A stretch of 32,000 bases of DNA, taken from positions 30,001 through 62,000 of the forward strand of contig NZ_JAYKGW010000171.1 of assembly GCF_035285525.1 (NCBI RefSeq), written 5' to 3'. Made by a program: the position numbers and the translations under genes. The notes beneath the pieces were generated by a model. The model was not told the origin of the DNA. It worked only from the letters and a program-made list of their open reading frames with translations, and ran no database searches. The DNA is from Okeania sp. GTDB lineage: Bacteria; Cyanobacteriota; Cyanobacteriia; Cyanobacteriales; Microcoleaceae. Shown here piece after piece: positions 14,101-25,169 of the stretch; the first letter of the stretch is position 1, and each line of letters begins with the position of its first letter.

Positions 14101-17100
14101 CCTTGACTGTTACGTTAACCAAAGAAGAAAATTTGCAGGAACCTAATGATACTTCTGATTCTGCTAGCATATTAACTGGTTCAGATAATTTGTCTTTTGA
14201 GAATCTCAGTATTTCTTCAAATGATAAAGACTGGTACAAATTCACTCTTTTGGAAACAGGTACCAGCAAGCACAATATAAAAATGACTCCATCAAGTAGT
14301 GGTGAAGGTTTAGGCGATTTAGATATCCGCTTATACAAAAAAGAGAATATTAATCAGGTTATTCGTTATAGTAATTTTAGTGGAAGGACAGTAGAGAATA
14401 TTAGTTTAGATGGTTTACCAGCAGGTGATTACTATATTGAAGTGTATGGATATAGTGGTAGTACCAACGATTATTCTCTGAGTGTAAATGCTCCTCTTAA
14501 AGCTGAAACCCCAGAAATATTTGCAGATAGTACATTAAAATTTTCTGATGACATATCAGGAAAAATATCTAGCGGTCAGAAATTTCAAGTCACGGATAGT
14601 CGTTTGACAGCTACCGTGGCAGTTGAAGTTAACGATGAAGATGCTGACAATATTCTCGTAGGTGCCAAGGCGAAAGTTGCTGGAGAAACAATCCAAGTCA
14701 AACTCCTAGAAGGAGAAGGCTATCAAATCAAAGCCGAAAACCCAGAAGAGACAGAAGCAACATTAGTCATTCAAGATGACGACACTCCTGGAGTGAGGAT
14801 CGTCCAAGTGGGAGAAAATACCACTGTTGCCGAAGAAAAAACAGCAACTTTTGCTGTTTCTCTCCTCAGCGAACCTAACGCACCTGTAACCCTAAAGTTA
14901 ACTCCTGGTGCCGAGATAGAATTTGTCGATCCTGTAGCACCCACAGAAGTTGAAGTAGAAAAAACTACCTACAATTTCGCTACATCGGAACCGAAGGTAG
15001 ATGACCAAACATTTGATATCAAGCTCAACAGTTTAGTCAACACAGACCGGGGCGATGCCGTAGCCTTTGACATCAAGCTCAAAGAGAAACCTAGTAAGAA
15101 TGTCACGGTAAAAATCTATGATGCCAACGATTTAGATCCCACCGATAAAAGTCGTCCCCTACAAGAAATTACTTTTACTGCTGATGAAACTGCGGTTGTC
15201 AATAAAGTTACTGGGGAGAAGAAGTCGGGCAACTGGAACGAACTGCGAAAAGTTAATCTATATGAGTTAGATCGAGATGCAAGTGGTAATTACAAGCTTG
15301 TTCTTGAAGTCAATGGTCAAAAACAAGAAATAGCAATTAACAGTAAAGTTGAGAAAGTTAAAAAAGAAACCACATCCATCACTATTCAGCCAGAAGATTG
15401 GTTCAAGCTCCAAACTGTAACCGTTGCTGGCAGTCAAGATTTGGTATCTGAACCTGGTATCTTCCACAACACTTCGATTCAGTATGAAGTTACCAGCAGC
15501 GATAATAATTACAACGAAATTTTCGTACCCAATCAAACCATAGAAGTAGTTGACCGAGTTCTCAATGCTAAAGAAACAGCCCAAGGTATGAAGGAAGGCT
15601 TAGGTTTACTACAAGATAGCATCGACGAATTGTCCCTGCCTTTAGTTGGTAAACTCAAGGGCAAAAATCCCAGTATTATCGGCGATCTGGGTAATGCCCT
15701 CGCTAAAGATACGGAATCTCAAACCCAACTTACTTCCGAAAAGTTGAAGGAAACCATCGAAAATGTTCTCGGCAAGTTAGGTTTAGAATTCTTCAACGTT
15801 ACTACCGAAATTAACGAACTAGAAACGATCGTCGGTATCAACTTAAGCAAACAACAAGAATACCGTCTACCCCTAGATGCTAATTTAGGGATACCCGCCC
15901 TGGGATTACAAACTGAAGGGGATCTACGGGCTGCTTTCAATTTCGATATGTCTTTAACCTTTGGCATCCACAAACAGTTTGGTTTCTACCTAGACACTGG
16001 TACTAAGAAAGATGAAAATGGCGATGAGATTAAGGATAAAGATGGCAAACCGATCTACAACACCTTTCTTGATACAGGCATCAAAGTTGATTTAAAAGAC
16101 TTCAAGGGTCGTGGCGGCTTAGGATTCTTGGCTTTAGAGTTCACCGACGATCCAGAAAACCCTACAGCTTTACAGGTTAGTTTTACAGCGACTCTAAATG
16201 ACGTTGATGATATCAAGAAGGACACTGATGAGACAAAGAAGCCCACTACTACTATCGTTCAAAAGAGTTTAATTACTGATAGTGGTTTAGTAATTGACGT
16301 TCCTGCATCTACTTCTCTAGAAAACGACGAAATTTTAGCAGAGAAGATTGCTACTGAAGAGGCAGCTATTGAGAATAAGATTGCTGATGCAGAAAAAGTA
16401 GATCAAGGATTAGGGACAGTTGAGGTAACTGAGTTAAGCAAAGATAAGTTATCAAAAGAAGTAGAAAAAGCTACTAGCAAAAAATCAGAGAACCCAGATA
16501 AACTGAAAAAATCAGAGGGCAAAACTGTAGGTGAGTCGGAACTTTCTGAGAGTGAGGAATTAGAAGAAACAATTTCTTCTGAAAAGTCTCAGAAACTCAA
16601 GAATAAACTGAAAAAATCAGAGGGCAAAACTGTAGGTGAGTCGGAACTTTCTGAGAGTGAGGAATTAGAAGAAACAATTTCTGCTGAAAAGTCTCAGAAA
16701 CTCAAGAATAAACCGAAAAAATCAGAGGGCAAAACTGTAGGTGAGTCGGAACTTTCTGAGAGTGAGGAATTAGAAGAAACTGTTTCTCGTAAAAAATCTC
16801 AGAATAAGAACAAAAAACAACAAAAAAATAATGATGATTCTAAGTTAGTTAGTGAGTCTGGAACGACTTCAGAAACTGAAGAAGAGGCAACTCAAGAATC
16901 TCAAACTAGCGATCGGCCTTTAATTCAACGTCGCAGCGGGACAACAACTTCAACAGAAACTTTAACTGGAAATGCCCTAACTAACCGTTTATCAGAATTG
17001 GGTATTAACGAACTCAGTGTTACATTACCAACTAATGTAACAGTTGAACTAACTACTGCAGATGGTAGTTATAAGCTTAGTATTGATAATTTTGACCTCA

Positions 17101-20100
17101 AAGCATTAGTTAAGGAAGTAACTACTATTCAGTTACCCATTGACTTAGAAATAACTGGCGCGGTATTAAACGTTACTCAAAGTACCAAAGATGGTAAGAA
17201 AGTTAATAGTTATGATATTCAGGGTAAATTCAATAATGCCGATGTTACATACAAAGACTTAGCCAATGGTGGATATGAACTAGGAATTAAAGAGTTTGAC
17301 TTGAAAGACTTTGTGGAAAAAGCTACCACCGTGACTTTGCCCATAGACTTAAAAATTGATGATGCCAAATTCAATATCACTAAAGATACAGATGGTAAAG
17401 CATCCTACGATATTACAGGTAAATTCAATAACGCCGATGTCAGTTATAAAGACTTAACAGATGGTGGTTATGAAGTCAAACTAGATAATTTTGATTTGCA
17501 GAAATTTGTCAAAGATACCACCAAAGTCGAGTTACCTATAGATGCCAAAGTAGATGATGCAGTAATTAAAATTACCAAAGTCACCAAAGGCGAGCAAGAG
17601 GTAAATAATTATGATATCAGCGGTAAGATAAATAACGCCGATGTCAGTTATAAAGACTTAACAGATGGTGGTTATGAAGTCAAATTTGATGACGAGTTAG
17701 ACCTGAGTGCTGTGGTGAAGGCAGCAGCTAACGATCCTAATTTACCAATTCCTTCCCTCAGCTTAAATAAACCTAGTCTGACTTACAGCAAGGATGACTC
17801 TGAGACAAAATATAGTTTCACCCTGGCAGATGAGTCATCAATTAGCTACACCAAAAAATCTAATAACGATTATGAGTTTATCGTAGATCATTTCCCCATT
17901 GGTAAATTAAGCGAATGGATTGACACTGATCTGGGCATCTCTGGTGCTAGTGAAGTCTTTAAAGGGAACCTTGATGTTGAAATCAGCCCCAATAAGAAAG
18001 AAATAGTTTTAGATGGCACTGTAGATTTTGGCAAGTTTATGAAACCGCTCATTAATTATGATGTTTCTTGGAAAGTTAATAAACCTACCTTAAGCTACAC
18101 AACTCTAGGGGGAGAAACTAAATACAGTTTCTCAGATACGAGCAAATCTATTAGCTACGCCAAAGATGCTAAAGGGCAAACTACTTTTAAGGTTGATAAC
18201 TTCCCAATAGGAGATATCGCTAATGTCGTTGCTAGCGGACTAGGATTAAGCAGTAGTAATTTACCAAAATGGATAGTTGATGCGACAATCAGTCCCACTG
18301 AGAAGAGTTTAAGTGTTGATGGCGAAATTGCTGTCAAAGACTTTGCAGACTTCGTAGGGTTAAATTTACCAGATGGATTAAATTTAAGTTTGAAAAACCC
18401 CAATCTTAGCGTCAAAGGGACAGATAAAAATAAGAGCTTCGATTTTTCAGGAACCGGGACACTGACTTTACCTAAAGACTCTTTTGATGATTTTACAGAA
18501 ATTGCCGATTTGTTACCAGGTATAGAGGCAACAGCTTCAGGGTTAGAGGTATCGGGAGATATTGCAGTTAGCAAATTAAGCTCTGGTGATATTGGATTGC
18601 AATTGGGAGTGCCAGTGCTAGGAGCTATCCGGTTAGAGCGCGAAAACGATAAATGGAAATTAGCAGCTATAGAGGATGGCGATCGCCTAACCATAGCAGA
18701 CTTAGGAGTAGTCGCCACCAACGACGAATACAGTTTTACAGATTTATTTAACTATGAATTTAAGGGTGATGCCAATCTGGGATTAAAAACCAAGACGAGC
18801 ATAGAAGGTAACTCAGCTTTCCCTTCTTTTAATGTTGATATCGCTGCCGATCTACCTTTATTTAACTATGGCAGTCAGGAAGAAGCAGATGATCGAGGTT
18901 TCGATATTGCCTTCAATAATCTCGAAATCGACCTCGGCACCTTCTTGAGCGACCTTGCTAAACCTGTAGTCGTTGAAGTTGACAGAATTATCGATCCGAT
19001 TAAGCCAGTTATTAAAGCTCTACAAGCTGATACTAAGTTACTGTCCAAATTAAAGTTAGAAAGCAAGTTTGATAAAGATGGAAAACCAGGTGTATCTATA
19101 TTAGAGATTGCGGAAACACTACTTCCTGAAAACAAAAAAATACAAACAGCAATTACATTTGCCAAGACTGTCAGCGGAATAGTTGATACAGTTGATGCTT
19201 TAAATAAGCAGGAAGGCAATAAAAGAATTCCTTTAGGAAGCTACAATCTAGATGATTTTAAAGCTGCAAGTCAGGATGATGCTGATGATGCCAGCAAGAA
19301 GAGTGACTCCATTAAGTTAGATACAGATGATAAATCGAAAGACACATCCGAGGATAAATCGAAAGATAAATCTACACCAGAAGAACAAGCAAAAGAAAAT
19401 GAGGCTTATAAGTCATTTAGTTCTTTAGAAGGAATTTCTATTCCTTTGATTGAGAAACCTATCAATGCAGCTTACTTGCTTTTAGGAAAAAATGTGGATT
19501 TGATTAAGTATGATATTCCCGATCTTGAATTTGGTTTTGAACTCAGCCAAAGTTTCCCCTTTTGGACTCCGCCTCTAATTTCCGGCAAATTAGGAGGAGG
19601 TATTACGGCGAAAACAGACCTAGCCATTGGTTTTGATACTTACGGTGTTAATCAATGGTGGAAAAAATATAATTTCGATCCTGCTAAAGCTTATTTAGTA
19701 TTTGATGGTTTCTACTTAGACGACTTTGACAAAGACGGCAAGGATAAGCCGGAGTTCAGTTTGGACGGTGACATTAGTGCAGGCGTGAATGTCAGCATAT
19801 TAGCCGCCTCTGCTGAAGTAAAAGGTGGTGTTGATGGCAATGTTAGTTTTGATGTCGAAGATGTGGGCGAGAAAACTGGTAAAAACGATGGTAAAATCCG
19901 AGGTTCGGAAATTCTTTCTCGAATTAACGACCCATTATCCTTATTTGAGCTTTACGGTAAGATCGATGCTTACCTCAAAGGAGAAGCTAAAGTTTTTGGT
20001 TTGGGAACAGTTTGGGAGAAAGAATTTGCTCGTTTCAACTTAGCAGAATTCCGTATCGACAAATCAGGTGCTAGTGCTTCCGCTATTGGTGGCAAATATT

Positions 20101-23100
20101 CTACCAGTTATATTGCTGATGCCACTATCTTCCTAGATGCCAACCTCAACGGATTACTAGACGACAATGAACCTGTCACCGTCACTGATAGCAATGGTAA
20201 CTACAACCTAGAATTTGACATCGAATACTACGATACTAACGGCAATGGAAAATTGGATGCAGAAGAAGGGCAAATAGTTGCCATGGGGGGTGTCGATACT
20301 TCCAGTGGCGTGAACATTACCACTCAAATGGTGGGCAGCGTAGAATCTGCAGTGCTAACACCTCTAACTAACCTACAAAAGTTTTTAGTCCAAGAAGAAT
20401 ATGTAGCATCTAACAAAGCAGCCGACAAACTGATGACTGAGAAATTAGATTTACCAAAAGGAGGAAGTTTAGCAGACAACGACCCCATAGCTGATATTGG
20501 TGACGACCAAGGGTTAGTCCAGAAAGTAGGTGTAGAATTTTATCTAGCTCATGTGGAATTGCAAAATATCATCGTTCATGCTAACGCTTTGGTTCAAGGT
20601 GTTAATTCTGAAATTGATTCTATCTACTTAGAGAAAATCGTCACTCAAGGGTTAGCTGAAGCATTGACATCTGAGAAAGTAAGTTTCGACCTCAGCAATG
20701 CTGAGGATGTAGAATTTATATTAAAAGAAATTGCTGCACAAAGCACTAAACCAGATATTGCCAATGGTGAAGAAGAAGAAGGCACTAAACCAGATATTGC
20801 CAATGGTGAAGAGATATCTGCTGATATCATCGAAACAGTAGCCGAAATGGTGGCTGAAGCTAACGCCCTCATTGATGAAATGGCAACCGCAGCAGAAAAA
20901 CAAAGTCTCGAACTGGTGATGCCAACTGTTGCTCCCGTTAAGCGATCTACCCAAGGAGAACTGACGAAAATCACAAAAGAACTTGCTGCGGGCAAATCAA
21001 CTCCCGAAACTGCACAAGAGCAATTTACAACCCAGCTAGAAGAAAGCAACCGGTTGGAGCCACAACTCATTAGTGATACTCGCAAGGTCAAAGTTTACTC
21101 CACAGGAGATGGGGAGATAGATGAAAACACTGGTAAAACTATTGACATCGTTATTGAATTAGGAGAACCAGCACCAAATCAAGGTGTGAATATTCTCTAC
21201 AATATTTCCGGTACTGCTACCGAAGGGGAAGATTATCAAATAGTAGGACTACCTAATGGTGGTTCCGAAATTTACATAGAACCAGGAGAAACTCAAAAAA
21301 CTATAACTATCTCTCCCGAAAACGATGAGATTAGCGAGCTAACAGAATTTATCACTTTGAATCTCCGGTACGCAGCGGAAAGTTTTGTCATAGATTCGGA
21401 AATGCAAACTGCTGTGGTTCGGATTATTGATGATGAAGAACTAACAACTGGAGATCAACCAGAAGGAATATGGAAACCAGGAACAGTTGACGATGATACT
21501 TTAGTGGGCACAAAAAAACAAGACACCTTGAGTGGTAATTATGGTAACGACTCTATCAAGGGTAAGGCAGGTGCAGATGTCCTCCAAGGTAGTCATGGCA
21601 ATGACACCATTATTGGTGGAACTGGTTCAGATGTTGTTGAAGGCAACTATGGCGATGACCTCCTTCAAGGAAACCAAGGAAATGACCAAATTCATGGGGG
21701 TTCTGGGGTAGATAGAATTTCCGGTGGTGCAGATAACGATGACATTTATGGTGGTGCAGATGATGACAATATTTCTGGTGGTGCAGGCAATGACAATATT
21801 TCTGGTGATACAGGCAATGATAATATTTCTGGTGATGCTAATAATGACTGGATACAAGGCGGTGTTGGTAACGATGTCATCACTGGTGGCGAAGGTCAAG
21901 ATGTAGTCAATGGAGGTGATGGGGCAGATTACTTTGTCTTAAAATCTCCAGAGGAAGGATTAGATATAGTAGTTGACTTCGATCCGACTCAGGGTGACAA
22001 AATTATTATTGACTCTGCTGGTTTCAACAATCCTACCCTGGAGGATTTCCAATTCCTCAATGGTTACTTGTATTTCCAAAAGCAACAAATTGCTCTGATC
22101 CAAAATGAAGGAGTTAGCTACAACTACTTCTCATATTTATCAGAAATTCTGGAAATCAAAAACACTAAAACTCTGAAAACTCCGGTTAGTCCTAAAGTTA
22201 CAATCCAAGAAACAGAGGGCGCTGAAGCAGAAGAACCATCAACATCTTCTAATATTGTCTCTCGTAAAGAACCAGCCAATTTGTTCGCAGAAATATTACA
22301 GAGGGGTGTTGTCAAAGTGGGAGTTGTAAATAATCCCGTAGTTTATGAGGAACTAGAAGATGGAACAGCGCGGGGAACAGGTGCTGAATTGGGTAAAACA
22401 TTAGCAAGTGCCCTGTTTGGTGATGAGAATGCAGTTGAGTATGTACTTTTAGACTTTAACCAAGGGTTTGAAGCAGTAGCTAACAAAGAAGTTGATATTC
22501 TAGATTCGGGAGCAACTTACAACCTAGTCAGAGATGCTCTATTAGATATTGACTTTGCTCCAGTTCGCTTTTATGATAACGATGCAATAATTGTTAAAGC
22601 TGATAGGGATATTGATAATGCTCAAGAACTCCAAGGTTTGACTATTGGTGTATTTGCCGGTTCGACTACGGAGCAAAATCTCAAAGATTTCTTAGCCGAA
22701 AATAGTATAGAAGTTGAGATCATAAGCTTTAGTAGCAAGCAAGATATATTTGTATCTTATGATAACGGTGAGATAGATGCAGTAGCAAGCGATCGTACTG
22801 TTTTAGCAAGCTTGATTCCCACTTTCTCTAATCCCGACAACCACAAAATACTAGACGAAGAAATTTCGGAAGGACCTTTAGCACCAATCCTGCCAGAAAA
22901 TGAATCAGAGTGGGCAGATGTGGTGCGTTGGGTAACTTATGTACCTATTCAAGCTGAAGAATTTGCCATTACCTCTAAAAACATTGACCAAGTGAAAGCC
23001 GATAGCCAAGACCCAGCTATACGTCGCTTCTTAGGATTAGGTGGCAATTTAGAAGGTAATTTAGGGGAAACCCTCGGTTTACCCGCAGACTTCGCAGAAA

Positions 23101-25169
23101 ATGTAATTAAATCTGTTGGTAATTACGATGAAATATATAAACGTGTTTTCCCTGGTTTAGAACGTAAACGCAACCATCTCTGGACTAACGAAGGTTTACA
23201 TTACTCACTACCTTTCTCCGGTACAACAATTTCATCAGAATTGATTAATAATGATGAACGAGGTCTTCTGCAGGAAATATTGGAGCGTGGTGTGGTAAAT
23301 GTAGGTCTCCCTGGTAATAGTCCTGGTTTTGGTGAACAAAGAGAAGGAGAATGGCAAGGCTTTGATGTTGATTTAGGTCGCGCATTAGCAGCAGCTTTAT
23401 TTGGCGATCCTGATCGAGTTAATTTTGTGGAACAGGATTTTGCTAAGGGTTTCCCCAATGTAGCCAATGGTAAAGTAGATGTTTCGGCAATGGCTGTTTC
23501 CCACAACTTAGTACGAGATGCAGGTTTAGGTATCGACTACGGTCCTACCTATCTCTATACCGGACAAGGAATATTAGTCAGAAATAATAGTGGTATCACT
23601 TCTTTGCCCATGTTAAATGGTCTGAGAATAGGAGTGGTAGCAGAAAGGACTACTAAGCAAAATCTGGAAGATAACTTGGCAAAAATAGGAGGTACCTTTG
23701 TTCCCGTAGAATTTAACAGCAATAAGGACCTGTTTGCTGCCTATGAAAGTAATGAAATAGATGCCCTAGCAACAGATTTAACGATTATTGCTACCAGGAT
23801 TAATGATTTTTCTAATCCTTCGGAACATCGCATCTTAAATGAAGTCTTGTCTAAAGAACCTTTAGCATTAGTGATTGATGAAAATCAGTCAGACTGGGCA
23901 GATGTTGTCCGATGGGTGACTCATACTCTGGTACAAGCAGAAGAATTTGGCATTACTCAAGAAAATGTAGATGATGTTATTGCTAATAGCGAAAATCTCC
24001 AGATTCGTCGTTTCTTAGGTTTAGAAGAAAATATAGGCGAAACTCTAGGTTTACCTAAAGATTACGCGGTACAAATAATTAAAGCTGTGGGTAACTATGG
24101 GGAAGCTTACGATCGCCACTTTAATAAGTTTAATAGCAATATTTTGCCTCGGGGTACTAACGAATTATTGAGCGACTTTGGCTTACAATATGCTTATCCT
24201 TTGGGAGTACCTCCAGTTACTGAAGATGAACCAACTGTCCCTATTCAGGAAGACTCTTCGCCACAACAACAAGATGATGAAATTGATGCTGCTGATACTA
24301 CCACACCTGATGAGACTGAAGATACAGAGACGTCTGATGAAACTCAAGACACAGAGGATACTACGTCTGATGAGACTGAAGATACAGAAAGTACCATATC
24401 TGATGAGACTGAAGATACAGAAAATACCTCAACTCTAGAAGATGAAACAGGAGAACAGACAACTCTCGACCCTAATGATGGACAAGAGTCTATAGAAGAG
24501 GAAGTAGAAGCAGGTCAAGTTACAATAGGTACTGATGGTAGCAATACTTTGTCAGGCGGTTCGGACAATAATGTGCTTTACGGTATGCGGGATGACGATG
24601 TGCTTTATGGTAATGCAGGAGAGGACACTACTTATGGTGGTAAAGGGAATGACCTAATTATTGGAGGCGACGGTGACGACCTTCTTTATGGAAATAATGA
24701 CAATGATACTATTGAAGGTGAAGGGGGTAACGATGAAGTTCATGGTAATCGTGGATTAGATTTTATTAATGGTGGCGATGGTGACGATCTACTTTATGGT
24801 GGTAAAGATTCTGATCGTATTTTGGGAGGTGCAGATAACGACACTATCTTTGGCGATCAGGGTAATGACTTATTAGAAGGTAATGAAGGGGATGATTTGA
24901 TTGATGGTGGTGAGGGAGATAATACTCTTAGTGGTGGTCAGGGTGGCGATCGCTTTGTATTAGCTCCAGGTAACAGCAATCTGATTCTAGATTTTGAGGA
25001 TGGTATTGATTTCTTACAGCTTGAAGATGGTATTGCTTTTGAGGATTTGACTTTAACTGAAGAATCAGGAAACACTGTGGTTGAGTTGAACTCGGAACGC
25101 TTGGCTATTGTTTCGGGGGTAGCTTCTGGTTTGCTAACAGCAGAAGATTTTCTCATTGCTGAAAGTTAA
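4602..25169 (+). CDS. giant (6,855 aa) mosaic RTX / Calx-beta / FG-GAP / SBP-containing protein; predicted type I secretion substrate, surface or extracellular
   Basis: A single uninterrupted 20,568-nt ORF. Recognisable domains run in one frame along its whole length (see sub-features). It contains two blocks of GGxGxDxUx nonapeptides and an RTX-type C-terminus. It is acidic and appears to contain only one Cys. Confidence 0.95.
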   Translation: MDNQPKSLVFLDTSISNYQQLMEGIDRNNTEIILINGSQNGIEVITNVLAQRQNLKNIQILSHGSEGALYLGNSKLDSSNLQDYSAQLDTWGKAMTNGGDFLLYGCNVASGDGKTFVEELSRITRRDVAASEDLTGSSVRGGDWDLEFKTGDIEARSALLPEVRANFAGVLDPVTIYKDSNYQGWSKSFYSEGFYTNFGDVGNDSTSSIKVEEGYKATLYKDNTQRSDSIIFLGNNSKLENNFNDIASAIKIEKIPETGLKATLYSNEDFTGDSVKFNTNIISQDWGGFNHGVPREDPDFFSAVWEGYFVPPESGTYKFSYKADDVVRFQIDTNGNEWFDIDSGWYTLGDGKSSSEYFQEGTAYKTKVSYFERKGDASIDFTVDGPGRSDSRNLSGLFVPYNPPKLSITPLNSESSERSGYAQFQVTADKTAPYDIDLNFSWNGQYTTKDGQSYFGRQIPRGSRETIVKIPIKNDSVYESSETLTFTLKPGNPAYLLGSNTTATAEIIDNDMKVSLEGGGETLKEAEQGKTNLTLKISDGGFQETTPVTFNTTGSLHLRIDPITVPAGQTSVDVPVTAIKNTDVINDESFQISVAPNLSYYQLADNNTVNINVEDDEPEIDITSTGIIEEAGATGEFTINFTKVNPQEFELKFQVEGTAKHGTLRNPSADSDYKLFYDALNENGKSLELEGSNYLKPGTDKAKPDIHTVKVPANTKTIKLRVQPINDELWEPDETVTITLLDHAESTSANKQYYKINSSKNTGTFTIKDNEPTISLGKVVNPEEGFGFGSTIQELGKALALDGEGYVRVPSSDKLDLSSNGKFTQEAWVDVTGSGEQAIFGDGTYQTNNQKAFPRLWITKKQGVKAAFGDGEVYHELFSPDNVLNPNSWNHLAATFDGTDYKIYVNGVEIVSTDKYKGKKPDNSQQFDIGRNGESDYFQGAIDEVRLWNVARTPGEIQNAMVTPLTGEETGLIGYWSFENNTNDSSSNDNHGTYVDNIFITPNNGNNESQFIDSQANPDGKNLGKTLYFTGEGKRQVTTRAFDTTVVDNITFDLIFSDGTNGGEAADEGKDVVLEYSTDGGNKWQQLAIYDTENYTQWTAIQETLPENARADKTEFRWRQIRDDGSGDNWGLANVQVANYINNPAPQIGYIEVNLDRPFEAPQGLWVNYDINSTAKQNEDYFNSRYRKVSTDGNSERDGIIIPQGETSGRIYIVANPDALEETDEELTITLKPHNFDNEAGSSNTNTNYRVDSNNETRLVKIIDNGAYQEKALFLDKFDRPIDTNNPLYVDGNGQATIKVKLAGLFSDDNEKVAVTVSGKQVNFDNSNWDRAQTITIDDLTTSSTLSYSYSNKDGNQSGSIPVTATPPQLIQTEEGSTADLIPVTPEVSINKGRDVREGDNQPGEFIVNLNAPAPEGGLEVKYTVEGTATTKEDYEELPDTIIVEAGETQVILPVAAVDDNILEDKETVEISLVQPLPTVGAEFQVNTYTNSHQLKPVVTALSNGGFVIIWQSYNQDGSDYGIYGQRYDADSNKVGNEFQVNTYTTNWQERPAVTALPNGGFVVTWDSVGQDGSGNGIYGQRYDANGNKAGNEFQVNTRTINAQWKPAVTALTNGDFVVTWNSSDQDGSGTGIYGQRYDADGNKVGNEFLVNTYTKSSQENSAVTALPNGGFVVTWHSRGQDGDGTGVYGQRYDADGNKVGNEFQVNTYTTSWQDHSAVTALTNGGFVVTWNSSDQDGDITGVYGQRYDADGNKVGNEFQVNTYTIGNQHSSEVTALPNGGFVVTWNSGGNQDGSASGVYGQRYNADGNKVGDEFQVNTYTNNAQRNSAITTLANGDFIVAWESQGQDGSNYGIYSQRYQNVFYTVNPEFDSATVEIADNDSTNIELANKVESTGEETSSYTSTFTPVNTSEDGTSETVGVRLPSRPSADVTLKLSNPDTTEGEVTPTNLTFTTNNWDEYQDVTITGKPDSENDGDVEYEIAVTAESDDVNYNDKTTVIPVTNTDENSNIELANKIEVTDPETGEKSTSYTVSFNEVTTSEEGTSETVGVRLPKAPNANVTVELSEVDTTEGEVTPTNLTFTPNNWDEYQDVTITGKPDPENDKDEKDVKYNIYFKDTSDEPKYETTKITVTNTDIDGTGETEAVKKPTASVKVIEQMTETKAGKVEISLSEPVPEGETVTVQFSAYDDNTATEGEDYKLGNKLFINSIADDNNKTQLFDNPFGEESPGNSAKPAFGDVDGDGDTDAVVGTADGTIKYFENLGIGNLQARSGANNPFNNIKVGSNAAPALSDINNDSKLDLVVGAGDGNLSYFVNKSNSTNTLFLSADAIADLTNPFSSIKANNNSVPTFGDLNGDRLPDLVLGAGNGSVTYYFNEGTATKPIFKSNSGNEITKLGNNAMPQLIDWDFDNDLDIIAINSEGEIKYLQNSNSSSPNFTVKNGQILPGITIDPGSALALTDLDEDGDTDAFIGTPNEGIEYLEQFQAVTFKAGEKTKEVTIQPIQDRVDEGEGESFKFTLENGINENNKYEVDSKSNQVELTIGDDDNAGVTVTPKQTDTTTSESEKGKTLTYTVKLDSKPTDVVQVYFGSNDATEALLGTSKSKKLELEVENGKNPNKFPARQGARFFDGNGVRQATTEELNGTNVDKVAFDLIFGNNSNGGEAAEDGEDVILEYSTNGGSSWSVIARYDTEDYAEWTTIEQEIPPEARTPKTQLRWRQVSHDGNGYDNWGLAKVEIPIAQKAEVIQLEFTPDNWDKPQEFFVSGVDDEIDDNNVPYKIITTVQSEDRQYRGLEVEPIQLTNNDDADNAQLEITKITDGVAEGRENIYKVQLSTKPTGEVRVIADPQNDQIRLNDENFGDRMTLTFDETNWDVEQVVRVSAFDDNIVEFIHESQIEFEVESGKYKDFESKAVNDNSEGAIDLGEIQGGYTWKNLGVAGTDRDWFKFTLTDAATTEDFVRLNITEGNKDNLEFKIYKEDDLENAVKTSSSEVKLDGLERGEYYLEIFSPEKSKIEYDLVIADEGYQYETLENDLKPLDVQIVDDDLPTAKIISGPTAAELSSEPGYFTIKLDAPVPNRNGSTGIKVNYEIVGGTATLQENKQLGDYKVTNKNSSKQGSVRIAPGEVQNNVIVVPIDDKLVEDLDLEVTKVTKGDTSNGKTKLNLDVQIPLTVTLTKEENLQEPNDTSDSASILTGSDNLSFENLSISSNDKDWYKFTLLETGTSKHNIKMTPSSSGEGLGDLDIRLYKKENINQVIRYSNFSGRTVENISLDGLPAGDYYIEVYGYSGSTNDYSLSVNAPLKAETPEIFADSTLKFSDDISGKISSGQKFQVTDSRLTATVAVEVNDEDADNILVGAKAKVAGETIQVKLLEGEGYQIKAENPEETEATLVIQDDDTPGVRIVQVGENTTVAEEKTATFAVSLLSEPNAPVTLKLTPGAEIEFVDPVAPTEVEVEKTTYNFATSEPKVDDQTFDIKLNSLVNTDRGDAVAFDIKLKEKPSKNVTVKIYDANDLDPTDKSRPLQEITFTADETAVVNKVTGEKKSGNWNELRKVNLYELDRDASGNYKLVLEVNGQKQEIAINSKVEKVKKETTSITIQPEDWFKLQTVTVAGSQDLVSEPGIFHNTSIQYEVTSSDNNYNEIFVPNQTIEVVDRVLNAKETAQGMKEGLGLLQDSIDELSLPLVGKLKGKNPSIIGDLGNALAKDTESQTQLTSEKLKETIENVLGKLGLEFFNVTTEINELETIVGINLSKQQEYRLPLDANLGIPALGLQTEGDLRAAFNFDMSLTFGIHKQFGFYLDTGTKKDENGDEIKDKDGKPIYNTFLDTGIKVDLKDFKGRGGLGFLALEFTDDPENPTALQVSFTATLNDVDDIKKDTDETKKPTTTIVQKSLITDSGLVIDVPASTSLENDEILAEKIATEEAAIENKIADAEKVDQGLGTVEVTELSKDKLSKEVEKATSKKSENPDKLKKSEGKTVGESELSESEELEETISSEKSQKLKNKLKKSEGKTVGESELSESEELEETISAEKSQKLKNKPKKSEGKTVGESELSESEELEETVSRKKSQNKNKKQQKNNDDSKLVSESGTTSETEEEATQESQTSDRPLIQRRSGTTTSTETLTGNALTNRLSELGINELSVTLPTNVTVELTTADGSYKLSIDNFDLKALVKEVTTIQLPIDLEITGAVLNVTQSTKDGKKVNSYDIQGKFNNADVTYKDLANGGYELGIKEFDLKDFVEKATTVTLPIDLKIDDAKFNITKDTDGKASYDITGKFNNADVSYKDLTDGGYEVKLDNFDLQKFVKDTTKVELPIDAKVDDAVIKITKVTKGEQEVNNYDISGKINNADVSYKDLTDGGYEVKFDDELDLSAVVKAAANDPNLPIPSLSLNKPSLTYSKDDSETKYSFTLADESSISYTKKSNNDYEFIVDHFPIGKLSEWIDTDLGISGASEVFKGNLDVEISPNKKEIVLDGTVDFGKFMKPLINYDVSWKVNKPTLSYTTLGGETKYSFSDTSKSISYAKDAKGQTTFKVDNFPIGDIANVVASGLGLSSSNLPKWIVDATISPTEKSLSVDGEIAVKDFADFVGLNLPDGLNLSLKNPNLSVKGTDKNKSFDFSGTGTLTLPKDSFDDFTEIADLLPGIEATASGLEVSGDIAVSKLSSGDIGLQLGVPVLGAIRLERENDKWKLAAIEDGDRLTIADLGVVATNDEYSFTDLFNYEFKGDANLGLKTKTSIEGNSAFPSFNVDIAADLPLFNYGSQEEADDRGFDIAFNNLEIDLGTFLSDLAKPVVVEVDRIIDPIKPVIKALQADTKLLSKLKLESKFDKDGKPGVSILEIAETLLPENKKIQTAITFAKTVSGIVDTVDALNKQEGNKRIPLGSYNLDDFKAASQDDADDASKKSDSIKLDTDDKSKDTSEDKSKDKSTPEEQAKENEAYKSFSSLEGISIPLIEKPINAAYLLLGKNVDLIKYDIPDLEFGFELSQSFPFWTPPLISGKLGGGITAKTDLAIGFDTYGVNQWWKKYNFDPAKAYLVFDGFYLDDFDKDGKDKPEFSLDGDISAGVNVSILAASAEVKGGVDGNVSFDVEDVGEKTGKNDGKIRGSEILSRINDPLSLFELYGKIDAYLKGEAKVFGLGTVWEKEFARFNLAEFRIDKSGASASAIGGKYSTSYIADATIFLDANLNGLLDDNEPVTVTDSNGNYNLEFDIEYYDTNGNGKLDAEEGQIVAMGGVDTSSGVNITTQMVGSVESAVLTPLTNLQKFLVQEEYVASNKAADKLMTEKLDLPKGGSLADNDPIADIGDDQGLVQKVGVEFYLAHVELQNIIVHANALVQGVNSEIDSIYLEKIVTQGLAEALTSEKVSFDLSNAEDVEFILKEIAAQSTKPDIANGEEEEGTKPDIANGEEISADIIETVAEMVAEANALIDEMATAAEKQSLELVMPTVAPVKRSTQGELTKITKELAAGKSTPETAQEQFTTQLEESNRLEPQLISDTRKVKVYSTGDGEIDENTGKTIDIVIELGEPAPNQGVNILYNISGTATEGEDYQIVGLPNGGSEIYIEPGETQKTITISPENDEISELTEFITLNLRYAAESFVIDSEMQTAVVRIIDDEELTTGDQPEGIWKPGTVDDDTLVGTKKQDTLSGNYGNDSIKGKAGADVLQGSHGNDTIIGGTGSDVVEGNYGDDLLQGNQGNDQIHGGSGVDRISGGADNDDIYGGADDDNISGGAGNDNISGDTGNDNISGDANNDWIQGGVGNDVITGGEGQDVVNGGDGADYFVLKSPEEGLDIVVDFDPTQGDKIIIDSAGFNNPTLEDFQFLNGYLYFQKQQIALIQNEGVSYNYFSYLSEILEIKNTKTLKTPVSPKVTIQETEGAEAEEPSTSSNIVSRKEPANLFAEILQRGVVKVGVVNNPVVYEELEDGTARGTGAELGKTLASALFGDENAVEYVLLDFNQGFEAVANKEVDILDSGATYNLVRDALLDIDFAPVRFYDNDAIIVKADRDIDNAQELQGLTIGVFAGSTTEQNLKDFLAENSIEVEIISFSSKQDIFVSYDNGEIDAVASDRTVLASLIPTFSNPDNHKILDEEISEGPLAPILPENESEWADVVRWVTYVPIQAEEFAITSKNIDQVKADSQDPAIRRFLGLGGNLEGNLGETLGLPADFAENVIKSVGNYDEIYKRVFPGLERKRNHLWTNEGLHYSLPFSGTTISSELINNDERGLLQEILERGVVNVGLPGNSPGFGEQREGEWQGFDVDLGRALAAALFGDPDRVNFVEQDFAKGFPNVANGKVDVSAMAVSHNLVRDAGLGIDYGPTYLYTGQGILVRNNSGITSLPMLNGLRIGVVAERTTKQNLEDNLAKIGGTFVPVEFNSNKDLFAAYESNEIDALATDLTIIATRINDFSNPSEHRILNEVLSKEPLALVIDENQSDWADVVRWVTHTLVQAEEFGITQENVDDVIANSENLQIRRFLGLEENIGETLGLPKDYAVQIIKAVGNYGEAYDRHFNKFNSNILPRGTNELLSDFGLQYAYPLGVPPVTEDEPTVPIQEDSSPQQQDDEIDAADTTTPDETEDTETSDETQDTEDTTSDETEDTESTISDETEDTENTSTLEDETGEQTTLDPNDGQESIEEEVEAGQVTIGTDGSNTLSGGSDNNVLYGMRDDDVLYGNAGEDTTYGGKGNDLIIGGDGDDLLYGNNDNDTIEGEGGNDEVHGNRGLDFINGGDGDDLLYGGKDSDRILGGADNDTIFGDQGNDLLEGNEGDDLIDGGEGDNTLSGGQGGDRFVLAPGNSNLILDFEDGIDFLQLEDGIAFEDLTLTEESGNTVVELNSERLAIVSGVASGLLTAEDFLIAES
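5120..5370 (+). other. beta-gamma-crystallin-like module
   Basis: YKDSNYQG fits the Greek-key signature Y/FxxxxY/FxG. NDSTSS and NDIASA fit the microbial Ca-binding motif (N/D)(N/D)xx(S/T)S. Confidence 0.5.
5377..5800 (+). other. PA14 domain
   Basis: GLKATLYSNEDFTGDSVKFNTN..DFFSAVWEGYFVPPESGTYKFSYKADDVVRFQID..YKTKVSYFERKGDASIDF matches the classical PA14 pattern. Confidence 0.7.
5813..6925 (+). other. array of Calx-beta-like modules (about 3-4)
   Basis: The pattern xVxYxTxxGTAxxGxDY...ExxExF/TxTL...AxxxIxDND recurs, e.g. TATAEIIDND, NINVEDDEPEI and EPDETVTITLL..FTIKDNEP. Confidence 0.65.
6990..7550 (+). other. LamG / concanavalin-A-like lectin domain (Laminin_G_3 type)
   Basis: LALDGEGYVRVPSSDKLDLSSNGKFTQEAWV..WNHLAATFDGTDYKIYVNGVEIV..FDIGRNGESDYFQGAIDEVRLWNVARTPGEIQ is the typical pattern of this domain. 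Confidence 0.7.
7675..8015 (+). other. Asp-box jelly-roll module, copy 1 (reelin-subrepeat-like)
   Basis: FDLIFSDGTNGGEAADEGKDVVLEYSTDGGNKWQQLAIYDTENYTQWTAIQETLPENARADKTEFRWRQIRDDGSGDNWGLANVQV contains one SxDxGxxW Asp-box. A paralogous copy lies at 12465-12812. Confidence 0.45.
8038..9030 (+). other. Calx-beta-like modules plus an unassigned segment
   Basis: LWVNYDINSTAKQNEDYF..ETDEELTITLKP and GEFIVNLNAPAPEGGLEVKYTVEGTATTKEDYEELPDTIIVEAGETQVILPVAAVDDNILEDKETVEISLV fit the Calx-beta pattern. Confidence 0.6.
9048..10196 (+). repeat. seven tandem 165-bp (55-aa) repeats, predicted seven-bladed beta-propeller
   Basis: GAATTC recurs in phase at 9048, 9213, 9378, 9543, 9708, 9873 and 10041. The periods are six of 165 nt and one of 168 nt. 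The unit is EFQVNTYTxxxQxxxAVTALxNGGFVVTWxSxxQDGSGxGIYGQRYDAxGNKVGN. Confidence 0.9.
10248..10995 (+). repeat. two tandem ~125-129-aa Ig-like modules
   Basis: NIELANK..TSE(D/E)GTSETVGVRLP..(A/N)(D/N)VT(L/V)(K/E)LS..DTTEGEVTPTNLTFT(T/P)NNWDEYQDVTITGKPD occurs twice. The ~85-nt stretches starting at 10431 and 10818 are near-identical. Confidence 0.75.
11262..12045 (+). other. FG-GAP / VCBS-type repeats (at least 5)
   Basis: Repeats seen: PAFGDVDGDGDTDAVVGTADGTIKYFEN; PALSDINNDSKLDLVVGAGDGNLSYFVN; PTFGDLNGDRLPDLVLGAGNGSVTYYFNEG; PQLIDWDFDNDLDIIAINSEGEIKYLQN; LALTDLDEDGDTDAFIGTPNEGIEYLE. Confidence 0.8.
12465..12812 (+). other. Asp-box jelly-roll module, copy 2
   Basis: FDLIFGNNSNGGEAAEDGEDVILEYSTNGGSSWSVIARYDTEDYAEWTTIEQEIPPEARTPKTQLRWRQVSHDGNGYDNWGLAKVEI is colinear with copy 1. 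Confidence 0.45.
13335..13660 (+). other. bacterial pre-peptidase C-terminal (PPC) domain 1
   Basis: NDNSEGAIDLGE..GTDRDWFKFTL..LEFKIYKEDD..LERGEYYLEIFS..EYDLVI fits the PPC pattern. Confidence 0.65.
14139..14490 (+). other. PPC domain 2
   Basis: EPNDTSDSASIL..SNDKDWYKFTL..LDIRLYKKEN..LPAGDYYIEVYGYSGSTNDYSLSV fits the PPC pattern. Confidence 0.7.
16500..16814 (+). repeat. three near-perfect tandem 105-bp (35-aa) repeats encoding a K/E/S-rich segment
   Basis: Units start at 16500, 16605 and 16710. The encoded unit is KLKKSEGKTVGESELSESEELEETIS(S/A)EKSQKLKN. Only a few substitutions separate units 1 and 2. Confidence 0.9.
17091..17700 (+). repeat. three 65-68-aa repeats of an unnamed module
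   Basis: The FDL(K/Q) landmark occurs at 17091, 17295, 17490 and about 17685. The unit is FDLKxFVKxxTxxxLPIDxKxDDAxxxITKxTxGxxxYDIxGKFNNADVSYKDLTDGGYEVK. An identical 54-nt stretch occurs at about 17421 and 17631. Confidence 0.8.
17763..18700 (+). repeat. three ~104-aa repeats of a second unnamed module
   Basis: LNKPSLTYSKDDSETKYSF (about 17763), VNKPTLSYTTLGGETKYSF (about 18075) and LKNPNLSVKGTDKNKSFDF (about 18391). Each is followed by ..ISY(T/A)K..F.VD.FPIG.. . Confidence 0.7.
20104..20300 (+). other. SdrD-B / dockerin-like Ca-binding module
   Basis: YIADATIFLDANLNGLLDDNEPVTVTDSNGNYNLEFDIEYYDTNGNGKLDAEEGQIV contains two DxNxNGxxD-type loops. Confidence 0.4.
21085..21440 (+). other. Calx-beta domain
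   Basis: IDIVIELGEPAPNQGVNILYNISGTATEGEDYQIVG..IYIEPGETQKTITISPENDEISELTEFITLNL..TAVVRIIDDE fits the Calx-beta pattern. Confidence 0.7.
21485..21940 (+). other. RTX block 1 (about 16 nonapeptide repeats)
   Basis: LSGNYGNDS IKGKAGADV LQGSHGNDT IIGGTGSDV VEGNYGDDL LQGNQGNDQ IHGGSGVDR ISGGADNDD IYGGADDDN ISGGAGNDN ISGDTGNDN ISGDANNDW IQGGVGNDV ITGGEGQDV VNGGDGADY. A 27-bp DNA periodicity is visible at 21723-21848. Confidence 0.9.
21940..22120 (+). other. internal copy of an RTX-protein C-terminal module
   Basis: DYFVLKSPEEGLDIVVDFDPTQGDKIIIDSAGFNNPTLEDFQFLNGYLYFQKQQIALIQNEG is colinear with the true C-terminus DRFVLAPGNSNLILDFEDGIDFLQLEDGIAFEDLTL..ERLAIVSGV. Confidence 0.5.
22283..23220 (+). 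other. family 3 periplasmic solute-binding domain, AapJ/BztA/NatF (general amino-acid) type, copy 1
   Basis: ILQRGVVKVGV..GTGAELGKTLASALFGDENAVEYVLLDFNQGFEAVANKEVDIL..YNLVRDALLDIDFAPV..LQGLTIGVFAGSTTEQNL..GEIDAVASDRTVLASL..HKILDEEISEGPLAP..EWADVVRWVTY..AEEFAITSKN..IRRFLGL..LGLPADFAENVIKSVGNYDEIYKR.. . Confidence 0.85.
23266..24212 (+). other. family 3 solute-binding domain, AapJ/NatF type, copy 2
   Basis: ILERGVVNVGLPGNSPGFGEQREGEWQGFDVDLGRALAAALFGDPDRVNFVEQDFAKGFPNVANGKVDV..HNLVRDAGLGIDYGPTYLYTGQGILV..LNGLRIGVVAERTTKQNL..NEIDALATDLTIIA..HRILNEVLSKEPLALV..DWADVVRWVTH..AEEFGITQEN..IRRFLGL..LGLPKDYAVQIIKAVGNYGEAYDR.. . Confidence 0.85.
24215..24520 (+). repeat. acidic T/D/E-rich low-complexity linker with SDETEDTE repeats
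   Basis: GATGAGACTGAAGATACAGA occurs at 24309, 24369 and 24402. The peptide reads PDETEDTETSDETQDTEDTTSDETEDTESTISDETEDTEN. Confidence 0.85.
24530..24955 (+). other. RTX block 2 (about 15 nonapeptide repeats)
   Basis: LSGGSDNNV LYGMRDDDV LYGNAGEDT TYGGKGNDL IIGGDGDDL LYGNNDNDT IEGEGGNDE VHGNRGLDF INGGDGDDL LYGGKDSDR ILGGADNDT IFGDQGNDL LEGNEGDDL IDGGEGDNT LSGGQGGDR. Confidence 0.9.
24956..25166 (+). other. C-terminal module, presumed T1SS secretion-signal region
   Basis: FVLAPGNSNLILDFEDGIDFLQLEDGIAFEDLTLTEESGNTVVELNSERLAIVSGVASGLLTAEDFLIAES-stop. Its position directly after an RTX block at the extreme C-terminus is what is expected for T1SS substrates. Confidence 0.6.

Follow-up and report, generated by a model that had tools for sequence, protein, structure and literature searches.

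A 32,000-nucleotide stretch of DNA from the cyanobacterium Okeania sp. (contig NZ_JAYKGW010000171.1, positions 30,001 to 62,000; hereafter the window) contains one uninterrupted open reading frame (ORF) that encodes a protein of 6,855 amino acids. Near the C-terminus of this megaprotein, between two blocks of repeats-in-toxin (RTX) nonapeptides, lie two tandem domains, here called copies A and B, that are homologous to the periplasmic solute-binding proteins (SBPs) of amino acid ATP-binding cassette (ABC) importers. The reading that we favor, with confidence somewhat better than even, is that the pair is an extracellular Venus-flytrap module that recognizes the head-group of amino acids, takes no part in transport and forms the core of a conserved cyanobacterial cassette. 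A broader version, in which this is a phylum-wide, type I-secreted and disulfide-free flytrap cassette that serves outside the outer membrane as a lectin-like receptor for amino-acid head-groups, is put forward only tentatively.

The assignment of both copies to SBP family 3, and within it to the AapJ type, is solid because the profile, sequence and structural comparisons all lead to it. Copies A and B align end to end at 47% identity (E = 9e-95), far beyond chance. The sequence blocks on which the original prediction for this region was based each occur twice and in the same order, with WADVVRWVT at residues 6104 and 6432, AEEF at 6118 and 6446, IRRFLGL at 6140 and 6468, ETLGLP at 6156 and 6480, and NLVRDA at 5974 and 6302 (in A and then in B). 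Both copies pass the Pfam profile SBP_bac_3 (PF00497), A with 31.5 bits and B with 58.9 bits at a gathering cut-off of 26.4 bits. The structure 4Z9N (328 aa), a BztA/AapJ-like binding protein of Brucella ovis co-crystallized with glutathione (PMC6191719) and the closest structural neighbor of the Asn-binding YhdW (bioRxiv 10.64898/2026.05.04.722672), is matched over its whole length (residues 11/13-327) by copy A with E = 7.5e-51 and by copy B with E = 3.6e-62. Both copies include the extra C-terminal segment of about 90 aa that is typical of the AapJ/BztA/YhdW subfamily. The equivalog and subfamily models of NCBIfam are reached by both copies only below their cut-offs; for instance, TIGR01096, the model for Lys/Arg/Orn (polar amino acid) SBPs, scores 105.4 and 120.8 bits, under its cut-off of 256.

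The AlphaFold2 (AF2) model of the pair, built on a family alignment of 42 sequences, has a mean pLDDT of 91 and a pTM of 0.91, and this high pTM suggests that the two copies are held in a fixed mutual orientation. The first Foldseek match of the model is again 4Z9N, with a target-normalized TM score of 0.93 and a root-mean-square deviation (rmsd) of 1.7 A. The next matches are the tandem flytraps GlnPQ SBD1-SBD2, BvgS and EvgS. These cover both halves of the pair with rmsd values of 15-19 A, indicating that the mutual arrangement of the domains differs from theirs. The observation behind the original prediction, namely two colinear and full-length family 3 domains, free of Cys and of any signal peptide or lipobox of their own, that lie toward the C-terminus between RTX blocks, is therefore confirmed, also by the structure prediction that it had called for. 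Its proposed end, nucleotide 24212, is exact, and its proposed start, 22283, falls 14 nt inside copy A and out of frame, the limits being 22269-24212. The interpretation that it attached to the domains is partly supported, as described below.

In family 3 SBPs, the alpha-carboxylate of the ligand is held by a lobe-1 Arg and by a Ser/Thr five residues before it. A G-S/T-T loop of lobe 2 also contacts the alpha-carboxylate, while a lobe-2 Asp holds the alpha-ammonium. The corresponding residues are R77, S72 and D161 in HisJ/LAO and R75, T70 and D157 in GlnBP. Judged by sequence, topology and invariance, a putative clamp of this kind is kept in both window copies. It comprises T5972, R5977 (nt 22530-22532), G6020-S-T-T and D6064 (nt 22791-22793) in copy A, and S6300, R6305 (nt 23514-23516), T6350, T6351 and D6392 (nt 23775-23777) in copy B. 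The Asp column is free of gaps across AncQR, PEB1a, 2YJP, 5EYF, 4Z9N and the two window copies. By the DSSP assignment of the AF2 model, R5977 and R6305 are each the third residue of a short helix that directly follows the preceding strand, five residues past the last Ser/Thr of that strand, and two extra residues fall in the loop after this helix. An Arg placed in a short helix five residues past a strand Ser/Thr is the classical family 3 geometry. Because of this geometry and the invariance of the residue, R5977 and R6305 are taken as the probable clamp Arg. Since the clamp residues are kept in both copies, the window domains do not appear to be obviously dead spacers.

The two copies have fared differently across the family. 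Clamp residues were counted in non-redundant sequences of four classes, namely giant, stand-alone, small-RTX and DUF4114-type proteins. In copy B, the Arg is kept in 22/22, 63/63, 15/16 and 6/6 of these, respectively, and the Asp in 22/22, 60/63, 14/16 and 6/6. The Thr/Ser of copy B is kept in all giant, stand-alone and DUF4114-type proteins and in 12/16 small-RTX proteins. The Arg of copy A is kept in 12/22 giant proteins and lost or deleted in 10/22, five of these being deletions. In addition, the Asp of copy A is replaced by Asn in 52/54 stand-alone proteins and its Arg by Trp in 4/5 DUF4114-type proteins. In five giant proteins (L019, L021 from Dapis, L022, L036 and L047), about 95 central residues of copy A are gone, corresponding to profile positions ~105-200 or lobe 2, and copy B is full length. 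Copy A is therefore able to decay to a half-domain, and copy B is never truncated in the family loci. Overall, copy B appears to carry the universally conserved site, with copy A probably auxiliary in most lineages and looking competent in the window. The original prediction had held that pockets degenerate in both copies would reduce the pair to a structural spacer. The putative clamp residues are kept in both copies of the window, and across the family degeneration is frequent in copy A with copy B kept.

The neighbor-joining tree separates the free single-domain SBPs from the A and B domains, all of which share one long-branched clade. Within this clade, the A copies make up one group and the B copies two; window copy A has its closest relatives among the A copies (at most 54% identity) and copy B among the B copies (at most 62%). 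This single clade with its copy-wise grouping indicates one ancient duplication, after which the A-B order would have been conserved. The peptide at the A-B junction (NDDRNLLQEI-type) is among the two most conserved stretches of the family and was picked as a pattern for the locus search. The nearest outgroups include three metagenomic single-domain SBPs (P0083-P0085), which are also the nearest free SBPs. Both P0084 and P0085 carry the name 'general L-amino acid transport system substrate-binding protein'; the N-terminus of P0085 is of the lipobox type.

The tandem domains have also lost their Cys. Four Cys that are invariant in free AapJ-type SBPs (C23, C49, C136 and C178 of 4Z9N) are V, S/G, G and I, respectively, in every A and B copy. 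The SBP segment of the window has no Cys at all and, the domains being internal (residues 5890-6537), no signal peptide or lipobox stands ahead of either copy. Family members that begin with the SBP domain start with 'MLLDKV...RG' and have no hydrophobic leader. Among the cluster representatives, all tandem proteins linked to RTX or DUF4114 have 0 Cys in their SBP domains, nine other tandem AapJ-type proteins have 7-12, and 81/96 single free SBPs have at least four. Of the Cys-bearing tandem relatives, P0143, P0145 and P0147 begin with a leader-like hydrophobic N-terminus, and the C-terminal end of P0176 is hydrophobic. Loss of Cys thus coincides exactly with the RTX/DUF4114 context. In evolutionary terms, it is a clean marker that the export route has changed. 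Because of the Cys loss, the lack of a leader, the acidic composition and the RTX flanks, the module seems likely to leave the cell unfolded by a route akin to type I secretion and to fold with no disulfides being formed in the periplasm.

Cys-containing AapJ-type domains are also found behind other N-terminal regions, by sequence reading only. These regions look Ser/Thr kinase-like with a hydrophobic stretch (P0172, P0253), caspase-like (P0143, P0182) or, in one case, like a large P-loop (Walker A) region (P0247). The AapJ-type subfamily may therefore be a frequent sensor or partner module beyond transport.

The cassette recurs widely. Two surveys were made, a word-indexed search that returned 96 proteins and a separate scan of one genome per GTDB species, a set without the window's own genome and with a best locus 60% identical to the window. 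Tandem proteins from the word-indexed search are cyanobacterial wherever a name exists, and none has a signal peptide. Their architectures include proteins of ~738-830 aa with an N-terminal ~45-aa repeat, of ~1,000-1,118 aa with a C-terminal DUF4114, and of ~800-1,060 aa with an N-terminal RTX block, as well as two SBP domains followed by a C-terminal RTX block and fragments of giant proteins. The scan of GTDB species found 54 related loci, all of them cyanobacterial. They are distributed among Laspinema, Microcoleus, Trichodesmium erythraeum IMS101, Nostoc, Calothrix, Tolypothrix, Dolichospermum, Rivularia, Capilliphycus, Dapis, Hormoscilla, Lyngbya, Limnospira, Crocosphaera watsonii and bins of the Merismopediaceae, Leptolyngbyaceae and Prochlorotrichaceae. 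In 26/54 loci the module lies near the C-terminus of a large host frame of ~1,100 to >4,300 aa; many of these frames run off the fetched flank. The last RTX nonapeptide lies 113-138 aa ahead of the module in 26/26 large hosts, and in the window copy A starts 119 aa past the last repeat of the first RTX block. Downstream of the module, a second RTX block is present in 11 of the 26, a DUF4114 end in 8, and something else in the remainder. This constant spacing and the nature of the C-terminal elements suggest that the unit of evolution is a succession of RTX-cap, SBP-A, SBP-B and C-terminal element. The cassette is not always terminal, since a 5,524-aa protein of Scytonema sp. UIC 10036 (P0125) continues past the SBP pair and a DUF4114-like region into a C-terminal segment that looks like a subtilisin ('HGTHVAGII', 'GTSMAAAYVTG'), as read from its sequence.

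An exhaustive HMMER search over 1.84 billion cluster representatives agrees with this picture. The top ~30 matches are tandem modules, including hosts of 5,524, 6,571, 6,366, 4,518 and 4,361 aa. Clustered at 50% identity, the giant RTX proteins that contain the cassette make up at least 18 clusters. Named examples come from Scytonema (a DUF4347 protein), the Elainellaceae and Hormoscilla, and a distant Cys-free branch among the matches includes an entry from Synechococcus lacustris. The Trichodesmium homolog is Tery_4754 (ABG53709.1), annotated as 'Na-Ca exchanger/integrin-beta4' with COG2931 and COG0834. Public annotation of cassette proteins is generic throughout, being limited to this name, 'transporter substrate-binding domain-containing protein' and 'DUF4347 domain-containing protein'. 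The literature searched contains no study of the tandem SBP-RTX arrangement and no mention of Tery_4754. The genome survey proposed in the original prediction thus finds the cassette in giant RTX proteins of many cyanobacteria. The prediction had counted it as a refutation if such fusions proved both common and characterized; they are common, and its statement that no system of this type has been described holds for the literature searched. The cassette is widespread in cyanobacteria yet uncharacterized there.

The remainder of the megaprotein is summarized in Table 1. The whole protein has a pI of 4.26 and a single Cys, C106. Upstream of the pair, Pfam recognizes a mosaic of DUF4347, PA14/GLEYA, Laminin_G_3, two Reelin-subrepeat-B, Calx-beta, FG-GAP and PPC domains. 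The RTX repeats (PF00353, E = 6.4e-58) fall into 10 stretches that make up two blocks near the C-terminus. These blocks are 40% identical over 189 aa and each has its own cap; a cap-like segment (FVLKSPEEGLDIVVDFDP...) directly follows the first block. The C-terminus probably functions as a secretion signal, and the same ending is present in the relative P0126, whose length and C-terminal sequence are those of the L002 ORF. Three groups of repeats in the megaprotein have no family match and are listed at the end of the megaprotein features. An Rfam scan of the window gave no match.

Table 1. Features of the Okeania sp. megaprotein gene and its immediate neighbors, in window coordinates.
Feature	Position (nt)	Strand	Basis or remarks
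Megaprotein gene	4602..25169	+	MEB3342272.1 / WP_324237703.1 on a 79-kb contig, annotated 'DUF4347 domain-containing protein'; exact protein look-up, ORF list and translation of the window
DUF4347 domain, aa 1-171	4602..5114	+	Pfam E = 2.9e-55 (aa 8-171), AF2, Foldseek
RTX block 1, aa ~5627-5777	21480..21932	+	~17 nonapeptide repeats; Pfam HemolysinCabind, NCBIfam RTX models
Cap (FVLKSPEEGLDIVVDFDPTQGDKIIID...) after RTX block 1 and short Pro/Thr/Glu-rich linker	21933..22268	+	Sequence
SBP copy A, aa 5890-6219, AapJ/BztA type	22269..23258	+	Pfam, NCBIfam, 4Z9N match, family alignment
SBP copy B, aa 6220-6537, AapJ/BztA type	23259..24212	+	Pfam, NCBIfam, 4Z9N match, family alignment
Acidic Thr/Glu/Asp-rich low-complexity linker, aa 6538-6640 (103 aa)	24213..24521	+	40% D+E, no K/R
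RTX block 2, aa ~6641-6800	24522..25001	+	Pfam, NCBIfam, sequence
C-terminal cap and presumed type I secretion signal, aa 6801-6855 (...RFVLAPGNSNLILDFEDGIDFLQL...LTAEDFLIAES)	25002..25166	+	Sequence
Seven ~55-aa repeat units, aa ~1500-1900	~9100-10300		No family match; 'GNEFQVNTYT...QDGSG.GIYGQRYDA.GNKV'
Acidic repeat unit, x3, aa ~4150-4300	~17050-17500		No family match; 'KKSEGKTVGESELSESEELEETIS'
Several ~70-aa repeat units, aa ~4300-4900	~17500-19300		No family match; 'LPIDL.I..A...ITK...G....YDI.GKFNNADV.YKDL..GGYE'
GldG-like (ABC_transp_aux) gene	2357-3937		Neighbor of the megaprotein gene
DUF4340 gene	25343-25960		Neighbor of the megaprotein gene

Compared with known systems, the pair is closest to the free SBPs of the AapJ/BztA/YhdW/NatF group (4Z9N), with which it shares homology over the full length, the C-terminal extension, the bilobed fold and the clamp positions. 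In contrast to them, the window domains are without signal peptide or lipobox, have the four Cys and the residues corresponding to R73, T89, R192 and D221 replaced, stand in tandem inside an RTX megaprotein and have no cognate permease or ATPase genes nearby. In GlnPQ of Lactococcus lactis (6H30), two family 3 domains also stand in tandem on one polypeptide and both halves match structurally. However, the binding domains of GlnPQ are fused to a translocator to which they deliver substrate; the pair has no membrane domain, and its mutual arrangement differs (rmsd ~15 A over both halves). In BvgS and EvgS (4Q0C, 9ILW), too, one polypeptide carries two flytraps in tandem, and they serve a purpose other than transport. 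The two flytrap domains of BvgS differ in function, which also seems to hold for copies A and B. Unlike the pair, the BvgS and EvgS domains form part of a histidine kinase that spans the membrane, reach the periplasm by the Sec route and have an identity to the pair of only 12-13%. MltF, in which an SBP_bac_3 domain is joined to a lytic transglycosylase, is another case of the family 3 fold as a non-transport module and gives a weak NCBIfam and PDB match, but its domain is single, Sec-exported, attached to the outer membrane and regulates an enzyme domain. PEB1a of Campylobacter jejuni (2V25), a family 3 Asp/Glu binder that has been claimed as a surface adhesin, matches structurally, and the NCBIfam model 'bifunctional adhesin/ABC transporter aspartate/glutamate-binding protein' matches both copies weakly. 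In contrast, PEB1a is a single free protein with a signal peptide and is the partner of an ABC importer, and its R67 column is Gly in both window copies.

Like the RTX adhesins LapA, MpIBP, FrhA and AhLap, the megaprotein is acidic and of giant size, has an RTX beta-roll at its C-terminal side and carries its binding domains toward that end. The C-terminal beta-roll of AhLap has a ligand-binding vWFA domain budding from it (PMC12077191), and the placement of the SBP pair between beta-roll blocks parallels this budding. The definition of RTX adhesins also requires an N-terminal retention module and an array of Ig-like extenders (bioRxiv 10.1101/2025.09.30.679566). In contrast, the N-terminus of the megaprotein is a caspase-like DUF4347, no retention module is recognized by Pfam or NCBIfam, and Pfam shows the mosaic instead of an Ig-like array, with large stretches of the megaprotein having no match. 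The adhesin model of the original prediction thus stands as regards the distal C-terminal ligand-binding region and fails as regards the retention module, and a uniform Ig-like array is not suggested by Pfam or NCBIfam. No SBP-type binding domain is reported in the surveys of RTX adhesins that were searched.

A mechanism can be outlined in which secretion, extracellular location, ligand class and biological role are all what we infer. An AapJ/BztA/NatF-type periplasmic amino-acid-binding protein would have been duplicated once and then re-tooled for Sec-independent export, with loss of the signal peptide or lipobox and replacement of the four invariant Cys. The megaprotein would leave the cell C-terminus first through a type I system, and the RTX blocks would fold on extracellular Ca2+. 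The rigid A-B pair, now outside the outer membrane, would be a Venus-flytrap receptor that closes on a ligand with a free alpha-amino-acid head-group. Candidates for this ligand are free amino acids and residues that are attached to a peptide, lipid or polymer through the side chain or the gamma-carboxyl. With no hand-over to an ABC permease, binding might anchor or cross-link the filament to such material or hold amino acids at the surface. We lean toward an adhesion or matrix role because of the partner domains PA14, LamG, FG-GAP and Calx-beta and the parallel with AhLap. A classical role in transport was rejected, as the pair has neither a signal peptide nor Cys and no polar-amino-acid permease genes lie in the window.

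Several points weigh against the extracellular flytrap reading. Genes for a type I secretion system (T1SS; HlyB/HlyD/TolC type) are absent from the 32-kb window, and the lack of a retention module in the Pfam and NCBIfam scan of the megaprotein bears on how it could be tethered to the cell surface. At the binding site, the canonical Arg falls two residues beyond the family Arg in the alignments of both phmmer and MAFFT, a register that was set aside on the grounds of the strand-to-helix spacing in AF2 and the invariance of the family Arg. The lobe-2 loop of window copy B has E6348-R6349 (nt 23643-23648) where relatives have G-T/A, each residue occurring in 1/22, and these side chains could occlude the site. 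R73, T89, R192 and D221, which are invariant in free AapJ proteins (4Z9N numbering), are G/G, A/V, I/I and E/Q in the window (A/B) and are replaced family-wide. The R73 column is also that of mature R67 of PEB1a, which binds the side-chain carboxylate of the ligand. These replacements suggest that, with the clamp conserved, the side-chain specificity or the permease-docking surface has changed. Lastly, the stand-alone tandem-SBP paralogs of ~738-830 aa have no recognizable export signal and are adjoined by a gene for an extracytoplasmic function (ECF) sigma factor, which hints at other roles for the tandem-SBP module.

Among the rival explanations, the pair could be a capture device, or 'aminophore', held at the surface or released, that scavenges amino acids for re-uptake through porins and the periplasmic Nat/Aap systems and so limits leakage losses from filaments or colonies. 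An analogy is HasA, a hemophore secreted by a T1SS. The kept amino-acid clamp, the descent from uptake SBPs, with a lipobox-type N-terminus among the nearest free relatives (P0085), and the occurrence mainly in filamentous or colony-forming cyanobacteria, including the diazotrophs Trichodesmium and Crocosphaera, are consistent with such a device. We nevertheless consider it unlikely, as no receptor or permease partner is found in any neighborhood, a stoichiometric binder on a 6,855-aa protein would be costly for one or two ligand molecules, and PA14, LamG, FG-GAP, Calx-beta and PPC are typical of adhesion and matrix proteins, not of nutrient acquisition. Alternatively, the pair could bind nothing and be a rigid spacer or a Ca2+-independent folding unit between beta-rolls, its clamp being kept for the stability of the fold. 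The degeneration of copy A in many lineages, through loss of the Arg in 10/22 giants, deletion of lobe 2 and the Asp to Asn change in 52/54 stand-alone proteins, points that way, as do the rigid pair in the model (pTM 0.91) and the atypical E-R in the binding loop of copy B. Against this, the Arg, Asp and Thr/Ser of copy B are kept in essentially all of >100 non-redundant sequences despite a mean column identity of 28% in the family alignment, copy B is never truncated, and a spacer has no need for a 650-aa flytrap pair with conserved order and junction, so a purely structural element seems rather improbable.

We give little credence to a sensor module, in which closure of the flytrap would alter the conformation or interactions of the megaprotein and signal to the cell, as in BvgS/EvgS or GlnH-PknG. 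Tandem family 3 flytraps are indeed the sensing part of BvgS and EvgS, both of them structural matches, AapJ-type domains occur fused to the apparent Ser/Thr kinases mentioned above (P0172, P0253), and an ECF-type sigma gene lies close to stand-alone paralogs. However, Pfam and NCBIfam recognize no transmembrane segment, kinase or other output domain in the megaprotein, no regulator gene adjoins its gene, and an exported RTX protein has no obvious route for signaling back into the cell. An artifact, that is, a mis-assembled bin or a false gene fusion that joined an SBP operon to an RTX gene, was considered since the window comes from a metagenome-assembled genome. This explanation is effectively refuted because the architecture recurs in finished genomes, being present in the complete or near-complete genomes of Trichodesmium erythraeum IMS101, Calothrix NIES-22 and NIES-2100, Tolypothrix PCC 7101 and Capilliphycus salinus. 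In addition, it is found in >20 further assemblies, the reading frame is continuous, and the family-wide loss of Cys speaks for long adaptation to the RTX context.

The stand-alone paralogs are encoded at loci L026, L028, L030-L033, L038-L040, L043, L046, L048 and L054 (e.g., L026:9707-19487). Their N-terminal ~45-aa repeat, 'YLxxNPDVAxAVxxGxFxSGxxH(W/Y)xxxGxxEGR', has no Pfam match, and their copy A has an Arg in the lobe-2 loop in 50/54. An ECF-type sigma-70 gene flanks them in 13 loci. In 10 of them it follows the paralog at a distance of 66-317 bp, in L043 and L054 it is found upstream only, and four loci have it on both sides. Five of these loci have a TPR protein next, and an ABC exporter (ABC_membrane and ABC_tran) and a methyltransferase recur further downstream. 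These loci may represent a regulatory system built on the same module.

The DUF4347 domain at the N-terminus of the megaprotein looks like a caspase-type (clan CD) fold. Its AF2 model (pLDDT 85.7) has as best Foldseek match the type VI secretion system effector Tce1 (9QPE), with a TM score of 0.55, followed by ~50 chains of caspase-3/6/7/8 with E ~1e-4 and a weak superposition (query-normalized TM 0.32-0.40). His63 (nt 4788-4790, 'IQILSHGSEG') and Cys106 (nt 4917-4919, 'LLYGCNVA') each lie just past the end of a strand, and the His and Cys motifs are conserved in homologs. Clan CD peptidases have a His and a Cys at such places. DUF4347 may be an autoprocessing or plug domain. The giants that bear the cassette in Trichodesmium (Tery_4754), Dapis (L021) and Laspinema begin with DUF4347 as well. 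At three further loci the domain is encoded by a separate upstream ORF, which directly precedes or overlaps the host ORF in L003 and L019 and lies ~4.6 kb upstream in L047.

The neighbors of the megaprotein gene in the window encode TrmD, a GldG-like protein, a DUF4340 protein and a PotABCD-like importer of the PotA/PotD/permease type, which possesses its own SBP_bac_8 protein. No polar-amino-acid permease or ATPase genes (AapQ/M, AapP type) are present in the 32-kb window, and no regulator gene was found there next to the megaprotein gene. Genes of the GldG-like and DUF4340 families are usually adjacent partners of an ABC-2-type system; since the megaprotein gene stands between them, this 20.6-kb gene looks inserted into an ABC-2-type operon. 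Across the giant-protein loci, neither T1SS nor amino-acid permease genes are conserved as recurrent neighbors. The neighbor clusters that do recur were considered as partners and proved to be housekeeping genes or generic ABC ATPase domains.

Solute-binding (flytrap) domains are already known to have been re-used in sensors, receptors and enzymes. What distinguishes the present case from this re-use is that the tandem domains appear to be Sec-independent, disulfide-free and flanked by RTX blocks, and the literature searched contains no report of an SBP re-tooled for type I secretion between RTX beta-rolls. If the extracellular flytrap reading is correct, this would be the first ABC-type solute-binding domain to serve as the ligand-binding module of an RTX exoprotein. 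It would also add a new binding specificity to giant surface and matrix proteins, either for the attachment of filaments to matrix or of cells to one another or for the retention of amino acids in sheaths or colonies. With its 650 aa, the pair forms a compact and well-predicted unit free of disulfides, which makes the hypothesis directly testable by a binding assay. The cassette is found in ecologically important cyanobacteria, including Trichodesmium, Crocosphaera, Nostoc, Dolichospermum and Microcoleus. Identifying the ligand would give a function to part of their large and unexplained repertoire of giant exoproteins, with a possible bearing on the cohesion of colonies and mats or on the economy of nitrogen and amino acids.

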